Sequence record: PZ445527.1
Reading direction: 5' to 3' (one strand)
From: a phage
Length of the DNA stretch: 64,000 nucleotides
A program made the translations under genes and the position numbers. The notes beneath the pieces were generated by a model that ran no database searches, was not told where the DNA came from, and saw only the letters and a program-made list of their open reading frames with translations. Shown here piece by piece: positions 27,805-57,049 of the stretch (its first letter is position 1; each line of letters starts with the position of its first letter).

Positions 27805-27881
27805 TGGCGCGACTGATGGGATTTGAACCCACATTCCCTCCCGTGATAGGGGAGTACCATTACCAAGCCAGCCACGGTCGC
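27805..27881 (-). tRNA. tRNA with unusual anticodon loop CTATCAC (anticodon AUC if folded conventionally)
   Basis: Acceptor 6/7 bp + CCA, T-arm GTGGG-TTCAAAT-CCCAT, anticodon stem CTCCC/GGGAG; A34 is atypical. Confidence 0.5.
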
Positions 27882-46866: not shown

Positions 46867-47628
46867 TTACACCTTCCCCATGTCTTTAAAAATATCGTAG
46901 AATGCTTTAGACTCAGCAGAACGAACGTTATCAATTAATTCGATCATTGAGAATGGAGCATTTTCATATTTCTCATAAACTTCCATAAGAAGTGCTAGAC
47001 CTGAGTCACCTTTAATGTCTTTCTGAGCTATATCCCCGCAGATAATCAAACGGCAGTCTTGTCCTACACGAGTTAGGAGACAAACCATTGCCTCAACGGA
47101 AATATTCTGAGCTTCATCGACAATTACATAGGAGTTGTTGAAAGTTCTGCCACGAGCATGTTCTATAGCCAAAAATTTAATTTTCTGACGTTCGACATAT
47201 CCCTTATAGGCATGATCACCGATGGCCCATTTCATACCATCAGCTATTGGCTCCAACCAAGGCTCTAGCTTTTCGGCTAGATCACCAGGAAGCATACCAA
47301 GAGACTTACCTAGAGGTTCATTAGGACGTACGAGAATCACTTGCTCAATATCTGAGTGAATGTCTACGAGTTCCTGAGCTGCAAGAACGGACGGAATAAA
47401 GGTTTTACCAGTACCTGGCTCACCGATACCCACAGTCACTGTGTTGTTCTTGATCATATTGATATATGATTTTTGCTCGCGGTTTTTACCTACTAGGGAT
47501 TTAGCAACTGGGTTAGCGTAATCATTAGAAAAATCAGCCTGAATTACGTTATTCTCATATTTGTTGCCACGCTTTCTTGAACCATTGCGGTTCTCTCTTT
47601 TTTGACGTGCTTTTCCCATAAATAACAC
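46867..47628 (-). CDS. phoH: PhoH-like ATPase 253 aa
   Basis: Walker A GEPGTGKT and PhoH-family blocks. Confidence 0.85.
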   Translation of the reverse strand: MLFMGKARQKRENRNGSRKRGNKYENNVIQADFSNDYANPVAKSLVGKNREQKSYINMIKNNTVTVGIGEPGTGKTFIPSVLAAQELVDIHSDIEQVILVRPNEPLGKSLGMLPGDLAEKLEPWLEPIADGMKWAIGDHAYKGYVERQKIKFLAIEHARGRTFNNSYVIVDEAQNISVEAMVCLLTRVGQDCRLIICGDIAQKDIKGDSGLALLMEVYEKYENAPFSMIELIDNVRSAESKAFYDIFKDMGKV

Positions 47629-47694
47629 TCCTATAGTGTACTTCGCTTCTAACAGAGGATCAACAAAAGATCTTGTTTATCAACTTACAAATAT

Positions 47695-47723
47695 ATTATA
47701 CCAGTATATACAGTAAAAAGCAA
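47695..47723 (-). promoter_or_regulatory. sigma70 promoter (TTGCTT-17-TATAAT) for phoH
   Basis: Minus strand consensus. Confidence 0.7.
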
Positions 47724-47895
47724 CTACAATTTTAAATAAGCCTATGATATTGCATTTAAATAAAAAATTTGCTTGCTTATAGAGGTAGAAATATGATACT
47801 AGATAATCATTTATTTATATGTAAAAATACTATGCTGTATAGCATCAATAAAAATTGATAAAAATCAAAAGTCAAATAGTATTAGAAAAATGTAG

Positions 47896-47924
47896 TTGAC
47901 GTATGGGGTGGAATTATGTATAAT
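47896..47924 (+). promoter_or_regulatory. sigma70 promoter (TTGACG-17-TATAAT), first rightward promoter
   Basis: Near-consensus, AAGGAG SD and ATG 47946 downstream. Confidence 0.7.
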
Positions 47925-47945
47925 ATGTGAATTAAGGAGAATTTA

Positions 47946-48611
47946 ATGGTAAGAAAGAAAATAACTACAGAAGATGTGAACTTAGCACTTGCTCCCAGAG
48001 GAATAATTATGCTAAGCACGTATATATCAGCTAAATCCAATGCTATATTTAAGTGCTCTAATGGGCATAGTTGGGAGGCTAGAGTAGATAATGTAAAAGG
48101 TGGGAGAGGTTGCCCTTATTGTGCTAGTCGTACTTTAGATCTTAAAGAGGTAAATGAATCCTTAGCTGCTCGTGGAATAAAGATGGAAGGTAAATACATC
48201 AATTCTAAGAGTAAAATTATGTTCAGCTGTGAGAATGATCATAGGTGGGAGTCTACCCTTGATAGTGTTAGAAATCATAATTCTGGTTGTCCTATATGTT
48301 TATTAGAGAAGGATAATTATCCTACTAACGTATATATTTTAGTAAGTAGTATGGGAACCAAAATAGGGATGTCTAGCAGAACTAAAGATAGACTCAGAGA
48401 TATTAAAACTTCTTCTAACATACATGATTTAAAAATATTTAAGGAATATAGCTTTTCAGATAGATCAAAAGCTGTGCGTATTGAAAGAGAAGCCCATTTA
48501 CAGTTTAAGGAATATAATTGTCAGTACAAAGATTTTGATGGTGCTACAGAATTTTTTAGTATTGAGCCAGAAGTAGTAGCAAGGTTTATTGAGGAAATAA
48601 TTAATGAATAA
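47946..48611 (+). CDS. zinc-ribbon repeat + T5orf172 (GIY-YIG-related) domain protein 221 aa
   Basis: Two C..GH.W....G.GCP.C repeats (CSNGHSWEARVDNVKGGRGCPYC; CENDHRWESTLDSVRNHNSGCPIC) and a KIGMSSRTKDRLRDIKT segment. Confidence 0.6.
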   Translation: MVRKKITTEDVNLALAPRGIIMLSTYISAKSNAIFKCSNGHSWEARVDNVKGGRGCPYCASRTLDLKEVNESLAARGIKMEGKYINSKSKIMFSCENDHRWESTLDSVRNHNSGCPICLLEKDNYPTNVYILVSSMGTKIGMSSRTKDRLRDIKTSSNIHDLKIFKEYSFSDRSKAVRIEREAHLQFKEYNCQYKDFDGATEFFSIEPEVVARFIEEIINE

Positions 48612-52720: not shown

Positions 52721-53149
52721 ATGTTCAATAATGTATTCTCTAAAGAAGCTAACCCAATTTTGGTTAACTTTTGGCGTACTCTTCCAGCCAACCTATACAA
52801 TGAGGCTATTAATGCTCTGAAAATATGGTGTGAGAATAATGAAATCTCCTTTGCTTTTAAAGGTGAGATTGAAGAGGCTCCGTGTATTGGTTTAATTGTG
52901 CAGGTGGAGGATGGTCTTGAAGAGATTGTCGGCTGGAAAGAGTTAGATGAAATGGGCTTGGTTTTTGCATTAAACTATAAGCTGTTTATGCCTAATAAAC
53001 ACCGTATTGTTGTTAATTATAAAACCAGTGAATCTCCTGGTTTTCAAGTTAATGAACGGTATGGTTGGTCTTACTCACCAGAAGAGGTAAATGATGGTAT
53101 CCAAAAACTTCGCCGTTTTGGTTATCAAATTCCGGGTTTAACTGCCTAA
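52721..53149 (+). CDS. hypothetical protein 142 aa (paralog of next gene)
   Basis: ORF track; shared blocks PCIG...MGL..ALN..LF...PGL with 53159..53545. Confidence 0.6.
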   Translation: MFNNVFSKEANPILVNFWRTLPANLYNEAINALKIWCENNEISFAFKGEIEEAPCIGLIVQVEDGLEEIVGWKELDEMGLVFALNYKLFMPNKHRIVVNYKTSESPGFQVNERYGWSYSPEEVNDGIQKLRRFGYQIPGLTA

Positions 53150-53158
53150 GGAGGCACA

Positions 53159-53545
53159 ATGGAACAAGTATATTGGCGTCAGATTGATCCTAGTTTAGTG
53201 AAGCGTGCAGAGAAGCTGCTACAACGTTGGTTGGGGGTAAGACAAGCCTCCTTCACTTTTCCGGAGCAGCAAACGGATGATCCCTGTATTGGTGTTTTCC
53301 TATCAGGCTACGCTAGGGAATTGGATTGGAATGAGTTGTCTGCTATGGGTTTAATTGTTGCACTAAATTTCTTTTTGTTCCATCCACGTGGTTTGGCCAT
53401 ATGTCGTGTGCCTGATGACGGTTGTTCGCCCCATCTTTTACAGGTGAAAGATGATACTTGGGAGTACACTCCAGATATTCTCAAAGAAGCCAAAGAACAA
53501 TTGAATCGTGTTGGAATCTATGTTCCAGGCCTGAATGATGAATGA
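53159..53545 (+). CDS. hypothetical protein 128 aa (paralog of previous gene)
   Basis: ORF track; AGGAGG SD. Confidence 0.6.
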   Translation: MEQVYWRQIDPSLVKRAEKLLQRWLGVRQASFTFPEQQTDDPCIGVFLSGYARELDWNELSAMGLIVALNFFLFHPRGLAICRVPDDGCSPHLLQVKDDTWEYTPDILKEAKEQLNRVGIYVPGLNDE

Positions 53546-53568
53546 TTTTTATTAGCTGAACTCTAATT

Positions 53569-53593
53569 GCCGAGTCATTTTGGCTCGGTTTTC
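53569..53593 (+). terminator. rho-independent terminator
   Basis: Stem ccgag/ctcgg with TTTT. Confidence 0.55.
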
Positions 53594-53636
53594 TCTATGC
53601 TCAAAGACACTGGTAGCAGCCCCTGGAAAAATCTAC

Positions 53637-53665
53637 TTGCATGATGCTCAAAATCTTGATATAAT
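53637..53665 (+). promoter_or_regulatory. sigma70 promoter (TTGCAT-17-TATAAT)
   Basis: Consensus spacing; followed by a 590-nt untranslated leader. Confidence 0.7.
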
Positions 53666-54259
53666 ATTTATATTGAATTGAGAGACATTAGTAAAAATTG
53701 ATTTTGCTAATTTTTCTTAGTGAAGCTGACAAGGGATTTACGGCGAGAGGAATCGATGACCCGTAAATAGCTGCATAAGGTACGTTGCTAGAGCTTTACG
53801 AAAAAGTTTTTTCTTGTTTACAATCCGCGATACGGAACAGTTAGGCTGCCCCATTAAGGGTTGTTTTAACTATTACTAGTGTTTATATTGCATTAGTTAA
53901 TCTTCAATTAAGTGATCTGTGTACCCTGAATTCGGAAAGGTAAATCCAAACCGTGCATATTTAGCTCGTTATATAGGCAGAGTTTTATATGGGGGTGCGA
54001 ACGAAAAGAGCAGCGAATGGCGGCACGTACAGTAGTCACCTACCAATAGGATAGTGAGGACAAATAGAATCGGCTTAGCGGCCAATGACCTAGGTTCTAT
54101 TCTGTATATGAGCGAAGAGAGCACAGCACTGAGATATGATAACTTATTCATATTGTTTGATGATAATTGATGTTTACGTAAATAGTAGTAATAGTTGTTC
54201 TATTCTTTCTGAATAGTCCTAAAGAAAAGATTTCGATTAACCAACACAGGAGTATTATT

Positions 54260-57049
54260 GTGTTTTCTATCCTCCAAGGTCACGCCGGGTTTTCTCGTGA
54301 TTTAGCAACAGGTATTTGGCGAGAAATCAAAGCGGAAGATTATACCTTTGCCAAGCGATTCTCGAAAGAGCATCCAGAAGGTAAACCAGCTTCTATGCCC
54401 TTCAAATTTGATGTAATAGAAGAGCACGACCCACAAAGCCTTGCAGAAATGTTACCACTTATGAGACGTTTAACGTCTGACCCTCATATCGTTGCGGTAC
54501 GAGGTCGATGTCTTGCACCTAAAAATAATGTGCGACGTAAGAAAGATAACTTTAATGTATCTAATCCTAGTAATATTATTGCTATGGACGTGGATGGTAT
54601 CCTAGATACCGGTGGGTACGACAAATTTAACCTTGTTGGTATGGCCCGCCACATTATTAAGATGTTGAATAGTATTAGTGAGGATATGTTTCCTCTTGAT
54701 GCAGGCTTTATAGCTCATGCATCGTCTTCGGCTGGGCTAAAACCAGGTATCCGAATGCACTTAATGCTAGAATCTAACGTCAAGGTAACTCAGGGTCAGC
54801 TAAAGTTCTTATTTACATCTATCAATGATAGTAGTAAGCAAAAATTTGGTTTTGATATTGCCGACCTAGCTTATTATTCATCTGTCCAGCTCCACTATTT
54901 TGCCAACCCCTTATTTAGCGATGGTATTGTTGATCCGTTTAAAGCGGAGAGTAAGCCACGTCTGGTGTATGTTAAAGGTTCGAAAGTAAATTTGCCCAAT
55001 AATCTGGTTGACTATGAAACAACTAGAGGGGAGTTTAAAGAGGAATTCTACTCTTTACTCGATCAAATTAAAGGCAAAAAGATTGCTTCCGATAAAGTAG
55101 AAGAAACCATTAGCGAGTTAGAAGAGGCTGATGATGGAGTGTACTTGCGTATTATCCCCAAACTATACCATAGAGCATTAGAGGATGGTGTTGATTTTGA
55201 ATGGCTAGAACGTGAGATTAAACCAGCTTTATCTGAATATATTGCAACTAAAGATAACAGCCGTAATATTCAAGATTACTTTAATAACGGTCGTAAGCAG
55301 GCTCTCAAAGCGTTTGTTAATAATTCTAAACGTGAGATTCCATTAAATCTGAAAGGTGTTCCACTTAAGAAATTAGAAGTGGATTCTCCACCAGAAGTTC
55401 CATACCTGAAGATTAACATTGTGCCCCCAAAAGGCCATATAACATTTGTTAAGGCAAGTCTTGGTACTGGTAAAACTACGGCAGTAACTAAATGGCTGGA
55501 CGCAGGTGTTCTTCCGGGCAACTTTTTAGCAGTTACAAATACTAGAGCACTGGTATCTTCAAATGCTAAGAAATTTAGTGCAGGACAATATGATAAGTCT
55601 GTAGATATGCTTAATTTTAAACGTGGAGCTATTGATCGTATGTCCACAACTATTCACTCTTTACATAAGTTCAAAAGTTTTATTGGGCAAATAGACACCA
55701 TTTTTATTGATGAATGTGACGCTGTAATGAATGACCTATTATTCGCCCCAGTTGTTAAGCAACGTCGCGAGTGTATTCAAGTTCTACGTGACATCCTCAT
55801 GACAGCTAAGACTGTAATCTTATCCGATGGTGATATTAGTGCGGAAACAATTGAAGCATATGGTTCTTTGATTGAGTTCGATAAACCAGTTGCATTCTAT
55901 AATCATCACCGTAAGATGCTGTCAAAAGCTCATGCTTATGAGTTCCCTGATGAATCTAGTATTTGGGTTGCACTTCAGACCTCTCTAGAGATGGGTGAGA
56001 AATCTATTCTGGTATCTGATTGTGGGCCGGATGAACTGAATGAGAAGGGCATGGCGTTGCGTCGTAATACGGGTGCGTTAGTTAAGGAAATCCACTCAAA
56101 CTCTACGTCTGATGTAGATATTCGACGTATTCTGGATTACACAACTAATGAGTTAATTGACCAACAAATTGATTGCTTATTATGTAGTCCATCCGTAACG
56201 AGTGGTGTTGACTTCAACTATTTTGATAACGTATTCGTTATTACTAGAACCTCAAACCAAGCGCCAAACATGCGTTTTCAAGCAATCAGGCGCGACCGTG
56301 GTGCTCAGAATATCTATTATTTTATTGATAAATCCACTAGTGGGTTCTCTGCAGGTTCTGAACAATATAATATTGATGAAGGTTGGCTGGAGTTAGCACA
56401 GCAATTATACGCACGTCGCAGAGAGCTGGAATCTAGGAACTATACTAGTACTTTACGTTATTATTTGCTTGATCAGGGTGCAACTATTGATATTTTCAGC
56501 GAAAGCTGGGGAACTATTGAAGGTGCTGGTAAAGAGTACACAGAAGAGCGAATCAAAGCTATTCTGCACTCAACTCCTGATTATTGTGCTCCACGTCATG
56601 CGGATGCGTATGAAGCTAAACTACTTCTTGTCCGCTATTATCATCTTGAGTCTATTAAAGATGTAACAGTTGAGCATGTTGAACAATATATCAAAGATAA
56701 GCCGAATGATCGAGCTGCATTCTTCCATAAGATGCACGAGATGTTCTGGGAAGATATTAAGAAGTGTTCAAATGTGACCATTAAACCATTCATAGAAGCT
56801 CTGAAGGGTAAGAAGAAGGACTTCTTCCTTAAAACAGGTCAGAGTGCTAACCCAAAATATGCTAGAATGTATCTTGGTATGATGGGTATTGGTAAGGATA
56901 TGAACACTGAAAATATTGTAGACTGGTACAGAACCTATTGTAAAATCGAGTGTATGCCAATTCCTTTCAAATTCATGACAGAGGAAGAGAAGGCTATGGC
57001 AGAAGAAGTAATGTCAGAGCTAGGTGCTAGAAATGACAGTGAAGAATAA
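54260..57049 (+). CDS. Walker A/B NTPase, helicase-like; possible replication origin-binding protein 929 aa
   Basis: Walker A (VKASLGTGKTTAV), Walker B (IFIDECDAV); GTG start with ACAGGAG SD. Confidence 0.65.
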   Translation: MFSILQGHAGFSRDLATGIWREIKAEDYTFAKRFSKEHPEGKPASMPFKFDVIEEHDPQSLAEMLPLMRRLTSDPHIVAVRGRCLAPKNNVRRKKDNFNVSNPSNIIAMDVDGILDTGGYDKFNLVGMARHIIKMLNSISEDMFPLDAGFIAHASSSAGLKPGIRMHLMLESNVKVTQGQLKFLFTSINDSSKQKFGFDIADLAYYSSVQLHYFANPLFSDGIVDPFKAESKPRLVYVKGSKVNLPNNLVDYETTRGEFKEEFYSLLDQIKGKKIASDKVEETISELEEADDGVYLRIIPKLYHRALEDGVDFEWLEREIKPALSEYIATKDNSRNIQDYFNNGRKQALKAFVNNSKREIPLNLKGVPLKKLEVDSPPEVPYLKINIVPPKGHITFVKASLGTGKTTAVTKWLDAGVLPGNFLAVTNTRALVSSNAKKFSAGQYDKSVDMLNFKRGAIDRMSTTIHSLHKFKSFIGQIDTIFIDECDAVMNDLLFAPVVKQRRECIQVLRDILMTAKTVILSDGDISAETIEAYGSLIEFDKPVAFYNHHRKMLSKAHAYEFPDESSIWVALQTSLEMGEKSILVSDCGPDELNEKGMALRRNTGALVKEIHSNSTSDVDIRRILDYTTNELIDQQIDCLLCSPSVTSGVDFNYFDNVFVITRTSNQAPNMRFQAIRRDRGAQNIYYFIDKSTSGFSAGSEQYNIDEGWLELAQQLYARRRELESRNYTSTLRYYLLDQGATIDIFSESWGTIEGAGKEYTEERIKAILHSTPDYCAPRHADAYEAKLLLVRYYHLESIKDVTVEHVEQYIKDKPNDRAAFFHKMHEMFWEDIKKCSNVTIKPFIEALKGKKKDFFLKTGQSANPKYARMYLGMMGIGKDMNTENIVDWYRTYCKIECMPIPFKFMTEEEKAMAEEVMSELGARNDSEE

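Follow-up and report, generated by a model that had tools for sequence, protein, structure and literature searches.

The 64,000-nt stretch of phage DNA analysed here over its full length (sequence record PZ445527.1; hereafter the window) comes from a T5-like phage (Demerecviridae) whose best match is Escherichia phage DT571/2, at 98.6-99% over the 801 bases compared around the element of interest. That element is the leader of the D2 helicase gene, a gap of ~590 nt between a promoter and the GTG start codon at 54260. The gap, which an earlier note on this DNA had described, is untranslated, and no + strand open reading frame (ORF) of at least 40 aa lies within it; it is the longest untranslated stretch in its part of the genome. 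The 801 bases match 524 phage records, all T5-like, and the locus is kept in 524-529 records. Comparison of the related sequences strongly supports the D2 leader as a conserved folded RNA of ~450-550 nt, encoded on the + strand and co-oriented with D2. The features of the locus, in window coordinates, are as follows.

53637-53665, + strand: early promoter, TTGCAT (53637-53642), a 17-bp spacer and the extended -10 element TGATATAAT (53657-53665), TGnTATAAT, read from sequence
53680-53718, + strand: P1, the 5' hairpin, with a GAGAGA/UUUUCU outer stem that is mostly G-U and a 10-bp inner stem (predicted fold, helix 1)
53719-53815, + strand: optional 97-nt insert with its own hairpin, 8-bp stem AUUUACGG/CCGUAAAU (alignment A1, fold)
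53820-53864, + strand: P2, a branched hairpin with the conserved tip CAGU-UAG-GCUG (predicted fold, helix 2)
53867-53907, + strand: 5' arm of P3, the long closing duplex, pairing with 54157-54197 through 19 + 16 bp in the window
53908-54156, + strand: multi-helix core of ~250 nt, present in the window as the "type A" allele (predicted fold, covariation)
53911-53927 / 54116-54130, + strand: core helix (predicted fold)
54063-54101, + strand: UAGC-hairpin domain, an invariant GCUUAGCGGC hairpin (GGCU-UAGC-GGCC) in a covarying outer stem (predicted fold)
54074-54081, + strand: invariant CUUAGCGG of the UAGC domain (sequence comparison)
54133-54154, + strand: core hairpin (predicted fold)
54157-54197, + strand: 3' arm of P3 (predicted fold, covariation)
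54200-54216, + strand: 3' hairpin, CUAUUC-UUUCU-GAAUAG, with no U-run after it (predicted fold)
54243-54264, + strand: weak D2 translation-initiation hairpin, AGGAG (54248-54252) in the loop and GTG 54260 in the 3' arm (consensus helix)
54260-57049, + strand: D2 helicase gene, 929 aa (ORF call; 99% identity to T5 D2)

The promoter has a predicted transcript start at ~53672, which corresponds to ~59,080 in T5. It had been called a consensus promoter, which is correct for the -10 element but not for the -35 element, where TTGCAT matches TTGACA at 3/6 positions only; a consensus scanner skipped it for this reason. One TATAAT per leader occurs at a matching distance, 493-773 nt upstream of D2, in 44/44 distinct loci, and in two GenBank records of T5 the homologous position is annotated as a promoter, right after a terminator, with nothing else marked before D2. 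Promoter sequences of a similar kind are found again elsewhere in related phages. At the loci of phages BB1 (L007) and S132 (L008), an HNH homing-endonuclease gene (116-568) is inserted directly upstream of the leader, and the leader promoter is swapped for a different one (TTTGCA...TATAAT).

The architecture returned by minimum-free-energy folds and by consensus folds does not differ between lineages. In the six lineages compared, folding of the + strand is favoured over that of the - strand by 23-46 kcal/mol. P1 is kept with a different sequence in the Sugarland, L046, L071, Providencia and Proteus lineages, at a locus where its own nucleotide diversity is 0.00-0.04. P2 shows compensatory changes, CAG/CUG against CGG/CCG in L071 and GCAU/AUGC against GUAU/AUAC in L070. 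P3 spans 27-38 bp in 6/7 lineages and is shorter and interrupted in the Sugarland lineage; 6-10 bp would be enough for closing a domain. The 3' hairpin, ~45 nt before the D2 ribosome-binding site, has counterparts in CUUUCC/GGAAAG (L046), ACUAU/AUAGU (L071), UUCUUU/AAAGAA (Providencia) and UUCUC/GAGAA (Proteus). The predicted initiation hairpin likewise changes on both sides, from ACAC..GUGU in T5 to ACAU..AUGU in Sugarland, where D2 has an ATG start. Neither in the window nor in the Proteus and Providencia loci does a terminator call fall between the RNA and D2, and no alternative pairing of the riboswitch or T-box type was found between the core and the weak initiation hairpin of D2.

Nine relatives aligned together (alignment A1) show the leader as an ordered series of blocks: an invariant 5' block, the 97-nt insert, a second invariant block, a ~300-nt centre that exists in two forms, an invariant 3' block and the ribosome-binding site. 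The window, T5, Sw2 and S132 carry the type A centre, and DT57C, SA001, HASG4 and BB1 carry type B. The two types are very different, with GGCTTAGCGGCC as a common island, and the allele differs even between the near-identical phages DT571/2 and DT57C. Among 35 Tequintavirus and Epseptimavirus loci, nucleotide diversity is 0.00-0.04 in the 5' blocks (53660-53869), 0.17-0.37 in the centre (53870-54199) and 0.025 in the 3' hairpin block (54200-54229), against ~0.05-0.2 in flanking coding DNA. By these values, the ends of the leader are more constrained than the adjoining genes and its centre is more variable.

Covariation was measured in two alignments. The second of these is a longer alignment (A6) with a mapped structure, used because MAFFT and RNAalifold applied to the short UAGC domain alone misaligned its outer stem. 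The structures were derived from the tested sequences, and these are related to one another; slid controls share both properties yet score far lower. Set 1 comprises 17 type A sequences and 155 pairs, with 99.8% of cells paired, compared to 36-51% when slid. Six pairs are compensatory against 0-1 slid; shuffles gave 5.1 +/- 0.9, and 204/500 were as high, so this count alone does not rise above shuffles. The covariation score of 0.059 does (0.003-0.016 slid; 0/500 shuffles as high). Thirteen more pairs vary on one side yet stay paired, 11/13 of them by exchange of G-U with A-U or G-C, and three pairs are broken, each in one sequence. Set 2 unites type B, Sugarland, L046 and L071 (21 sequences, 170 pairs): 91.5% of cells are paired (37-50% slid), 57/170 pairs are compensatory (20-28 slid, 23 +/- 3 shuffled, 0/500 shuffles as high), the covariation score is 0.187 (0.049-0.073 slid), and both sides change in 142 cells (34-44 slid). 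Compensatory changes fall in 7/8 outer-stem pairs of the UAGC domain and in 12/31 pairs of P3.

An alignment-free comparison of the P3 arms, each taken as 45 nt, directly downstream of P2 and directly upstream of the 3' hairpin, agrees with these results. Across seven lineages (A, B, Sugarland, L046, L071, Providencia and Proteus), cognate arms pair at -21 to -38 kcal/mol, whereas non-cognate arms pair mostly at about -8 to -15 and at worst at -21 kcal/mol. The arms covary in a way that keeps their pairs, with G-U present and no A-C mismatches. Conservation of the leader obeys RNA pairing, with frequent G-U pairs tolerated on the + strand only, which is not what DNA-binding sites would produce, and we think that the functional object is the folded RNA rather than the DNA. 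A regulatory leader RNA had been one of two functions proposed for this stretch in the earlier note. Its RNA part is strongly supported, in a form that goes further than the one put forward, by a conserved + strand fold with abundant compensatory changes, while a regulatory role is what we infer from it.

The RNA is widespread among T5-like phages. The order of promoter, 500-770-nt untranslated stretch and D2 recurs in Tequintavirus, Epseptimavirus, Sugarlandvirus, Novosibvirus (Proteus), Priunavirus (Providencia) and two further lineages, and the 8-mer CTTAGCGG is found on the + strand upstream of D2 in 35/35 enterobacterial T5-like loci (L018-L052). When a covariance model (R1) was built with type B and related cores as its sole input, it gave full-length alignments to type A cores in the window (54012-54136), in T5 and in one Epseptimavirus, plus a weak alignment to Providencia. 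Because one false match within a Vibrio D2 gene scores equally well, the scores carry no significance by themselves, and the weight lies on where the true matches fall. At the leader of Vibrio T5-like phages there is neither CUUAGCGG nor an R1 match. The Vibrio loci L015, L053, L054 and L056 have, ~700 nt upstream of D2, a promoter-like site (TTGACA-N17-TATAAA) and then two hairpins; this 5' hairpin pair is nearly identical between lineages that are otherwise ~65% identical, and a long variable untranslated stretch follows it. This stretch may be an analogous RNA without detectable sequence homology, the two-lineage alignment being too poor to judge covariation.

No catalogued family accounts for the fold. 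Rfam 15 gave no match at gathering score in 53550-54300, and at E <=10 only four chance matches of 12-14 bits; the six other lineages gave none at E <=1. ARAGORN called no tRNA or transfer-messenger RNA (tmRNA) in the leader, the GenBank records listed carry no RNA annotation there, and no paper was found on an RNA or a mapped origin at the D2 leader locus; the 'Rad' of T5 is unrelated to it. Several large RNAs resemble it in general form. GOLLD and ROOL, and also OLE and raiA, are several hundred nt long with many helices, GNRA-like loops and a covarying fold, and are phage-borne. They differ in that no sequence or structure match was obtained at the thresholds tried, and the leader RNA forms the 5' part of an mRNA and is confined to enterobacterial T5-like phages. 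The D2 leader thus appears, from sequence comparison, to represent a new family of structured RNAs in phages, joined to a replication gene. One survey lists thousands of automatically predicted phage RNA candidates, and its main text makes no mention of T5-like phages (PMC10690425); the leader RNA may sit unnoticed among those candidates.

In size this fold is on a par with tmRNA or RNase P RNA. Complex RNA folds of such scale are uncommon, and many prove to have sophisticated functions; the leader RNA is a candidate family to be added to the few large RNAs known from bacteria and phages. Although T5 has long served as a model phage, to our knowledge neither its replication start sequence nor the way its replication genes are controlled has been established. 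The leader RNA would offer a concrete and easily mutated target for asking how T5 turns replication on, and its two exchangeable core alleles a ready-made natural experiment.

With moderate confidence, we favour a reading in which the leader RNA acts in cis, as a module for the processing and expression of D2 and of the replication genes that follow. The transcript would run rightward from the 53637-53665 promoter on into the D2 message, and host RNase III would cut this primary transcript within P3. The cut is proposed because duplexes longer than about two helical turns are an RNase III substrate; such action is established for the leader-trailer helices of ribosomal RNA (rRNA) and for T7 early RNA. 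The core would thereby be freed as a stable RNA, and the remaining D2 message would start at the ultra-conserved 3' hairpin, an end that would determine how stable this message is and how well it is translated. The invariant GCUUAGCGGC loop may be the contact for a protein or RNA partner.

Known RNase III processing stems (rRNA leader-trailer helices, the R sites of T7 early mRNA and the lambda N leader) are alike in having a duplex of more than two helical turns in the primary transcript of a strong promoter, where the duplex brackets a structured RNA or precedes a coding region; cleavage here would likewise yield a mature RNA and a hairpin-protected message. P3 is a conserved duplex of at least ~20 bp within a transcript, as in those stems. 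It differs from the T7 R sites, which are ~60-nt hairpins, in closing a 250-nt core that is not rRNA, and its cleavage is putative. The HK022 put and lambda nut sites and the T4 gene 32/43 operators share hairpins near an early promoter or a replication gene that act on their own transcript. They measure 30-75 nt, as opposed to a 450-550-nt leader RNA with a closed multi-helix core, and no boxA/boxB-like sequence was recognised in the leader by eye, no dedicated search having been run.

Several observations weigh against this processing and expression module. First, cutting by RNase III, any effect on D2 and a binding partner are all inferred, the first two from the length of the duplex. Second, the minimum-free-energy z-scores are modest, -0.8 to -4.7 for the + strand and -0.8 to -2.7 for the - strand. 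Third, a 450-nt fold far exceeds the size of known translational operators. Fourth, the Proteus phages have a second promoter, a 12/12 match, 36 nt before D2, so that D2 need not depend on the leader there, which favours an RNA with a role of its own. Lastly, two very different core alleles that are swapped between near-identical phages look more like specificity or conflict than housekeeping control.

The Proteus locus L047 has two 12/12 sigma-70 consensus promoters, one before the RNA (705-733) and the one next to D2 (1435-1464). It also has ~290 extra bases between the RNA and D2, which include a second CCTTAGCC motif.

Such a role of its own defines the first alternative, in which the core, freed by cleavage at the long duplex, is itself the functional product and binds or titrates a host or phage factor through its invariant loop; the position before D2 would then give only early, strong co-expression. 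The size and complexity of the fold suit this reading, as does a hypervariable core that retains its fold and one invariant hairpin. Both core alleles are common and are exchanged between close relatives, the Proteus D2 has its own consensus promoter, and the long duplex resembles the stems whose processing is known to release rRNAs. However, no terminator marks a separate gene, the RNA is always directly upstream of D2 and co-oriented with it, and it has no known partner and no Rfam match. On balance, we regard a stand-alone trans-acting RNA as possible but doubtful. Two specific ideas were rejected. A CsrA sponge finds no enrichment of GGA, AGGA or ANGGA relative to dinucleotide shuffles, and these motifs are mostly paired. 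A link between the RNA allele and the D2 N-terminus is not specific, as D2 is diverged in type B phages but also in the type A Epseptimavirus.

Equally tentative is the suggestion that the leader RNA works with D2 in starting T5 replication, as a structured primer or origin RNA or as an RNA subunit of the initiation complex. If true, the two core alleles would be replicon-specificity types. D2 matches phrog_3712 and the Pfam family Herpes_ori_bp, and a biochemical study of this bipolar superfamily 2 (SF2) helicase proposed a role for it in replication initiation (PMC3632103). Its description as an origin-binding helicase in the earlier note is only partly upheld: the match to the UL9-type helicase is confined to residues 389-533, the first helicase lobe, and the UL9 DNA-binding domain lies outside it. 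Similarity to solved structures of herpes origin-binding proteins is again limited to the helicase lobe, and no Pfam domain was found in the N-terminal domain of D2. Residues 272-360 (window 55073-55339) match PDB 4py5 at E = 0.012, a weak similarity judged probably spurious; the file names the entry 'Ribonuclease' only, and we take it to be RNase H3.

The earlier note had also offered the stretch as a replication origin, for which there is no positive sequence support: iterons and good DnaA boxes are absent, and conservation follows RNA pairing. The leader has only two-copy repeats of 9-19 nt at 75-100% identity, and its best matches to a DnaA box carry 2 mismatches. The cumulative GC-skew minimum of the window lies at ~47.7 kb, 6 kb upstream of the leader, at a strand switch; together with the lack of iterons and good DnaA boxes, this leaves a DNA origin in the leader unsupported. 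At that switch, leftward genes end at 47628 and rightward genes begin at 47946, and the divergent control region between them (47629-47945) is a better skew-based origin candidate than the D2 leader.

An origin of a different kind would be primed by transcription, with the structured transcript held persistently in a hybrid with the DNA near the AT-rich 3' end (54130-54259); this hybrid would prime replication or open the DNA for D2, as at ColE1 RNA II and at T7 and T4 promoter-type origins. ColE1 RNA II (~550 nt), T7 phi1.1A/B and T4 oriF/oriG all combine a strong promoter with an untranslated structured transcript by replication genes and an AT-rich end. At the D2 leader, a strong promoter and a ~500-600-nt structured transcript adjoin the gene of the presumed initiator helicase, and transcription from 53637-53665 would run into the 26% GC stretch at 54130-54259 as a putative unwinding element. 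Even phages in which D2 has a separate promoter retain the synteny, and the proposal of D2 as an initiation protein (PMC3632103) fits as well. T5 origins have been mapped 'near the centre' of the genome (10.1101/866236), and the leader lies at 48.4-48.9% of the T5 genome; the electron-microscopic mapping, from 1976, is coarse. On the other side, there is no conserved G-rich tract that could form the hybrid; the G5 run at 53991-53995 occurs in type A only. The bases of the AT-rich end are themselves taken up by pairing, as the 3' arm of P3. Neither an antisense regulator of the RNA I type nor an Rfam match to RNA II was found, origins of the T4 and T7 type need no elaborate covarying core, and the skew minimum and strand switch fall at ~47.7 kb. 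We regard a transcription-primed origin as slightly less probable than a stand-alone trans-acting RNA.

Far less probable is an origin that acts at the DNA level, in which D2 would bind double-stranded DNA at repeated sites next to an AT-rich unwinding element, in the manner of UL9 at herpesvirus oriS. The ends of the leader are AT-rich, the region adjoins D2, and one exact UL9 box I core, CGTTCGCAC, is present at 53995-54003 (- strand), its sole copy in 64 kb. We treat the match as coincidence, for the box occurs once and in no allele but type A, and the DNA-binding domain of UL9 is missing from D2. Herpesvirus oriS/oriL has at least two inverted CGTTCGCACTT-like UL9 boxes around an AT-rich spacer and a protein with the UL9 C-terminal domain; the leader has no iterons and no inverted box pairs, D2 resembles UL9 in the helicase lobe only, and the core that would bear the sites is the most variable part.

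Description of the leader as AT-rich needs qualification, as it applies to the two ends (19.5% GC at 53666-53706 and 26% at 54130-54259) while the whole is barely so (36.7% GC vs 38.9% for the window) and the core at 53930-54130 has 45% GC.

We give very little credence to a mobile-element remnant or neutral spacer, a reading prompted by 40-bp inverted repeats around a variable ~250-bp interior, which resemble a miniature inverted-repeat element, and by the 8-bp direct repeats of the 97-nt insert; such transposable elements have copies at different loci, whereas the leader occupies a single locus per genome in every lineage with no copies elsewhere in the collections searched, its arms covary to keep pairing with G-U but no A-C, and its flanks are more conserved than coding DNA.

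The insert itself is bounded by the 8-bp direct repeat TTTTTCTT (53711-53718 and 53808-53815) and sits between P1 and P2. It occurs in 51 of ~529 related records (~10%), in type A and type B backgrounds alike; in alignment A1 it is carried by the window, DT57C and 26175I and is missing from T5 and Sw2. It was rejected as a mobile repeat, being found in single copy in each record, the window included, and at the leader locus only. An insert of comparable size stands at the analogous place in locus L054 of a Vibrio phage.

Least credible of all is control by a leader peptide or small protein, with translation of one of two small ORFs coupled to D2 expression, for although both ORFs named in the earlier note exist and the first has GAGAGG upstream, the mini-ORF ATGACCCGTAAATAG (53756-53770) lies inside the insert that ~90% of relatives lack, where its codons make up the 3' side of a hairpin, and the 21-codon ORF (start at 53989) has no Shine-Dalgarno sequence and is restricted to the type A allele, absent from type B and the other lineages. 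When ORFs of at least 20 codons were compared between lineages by blastp, none was conserved, trivial overlaps with invariant nucleotides aside, and the leader thus has neither the conserved ORF nor the terminator before D2 of a leader-peptide attenuator. A 60-aa minus-strand ORF (53969-54151) was rejected as coding because it is missing from Epseptimavirus type A sequences.

Upstream of the promoter, the preceding operon ends in an intrinsic terminator identified by a terminator scan, as follows.

53569-53595, + strand: terminator of the upstream operon, GCCGAGTCATTTTGGCTCGGT and then a T-run (hairpin 53569-53589)

This terminator is kept in alignment A1 and is annotated as such in T5 (NC_005859). 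The two genes directly upstream of the leader (52721-53149 and 53159-53545) are tandem paralogues, both full-length matches to phrog_2502, with function unassigned. Elsewhere in the window, ARAGORN called a tRNA-Asp at 27805-27881 (- strand) with the anticodon ATC instead of the usual GTC, as part of a 12-tRNA cluster at 25.5-31.8 kb.

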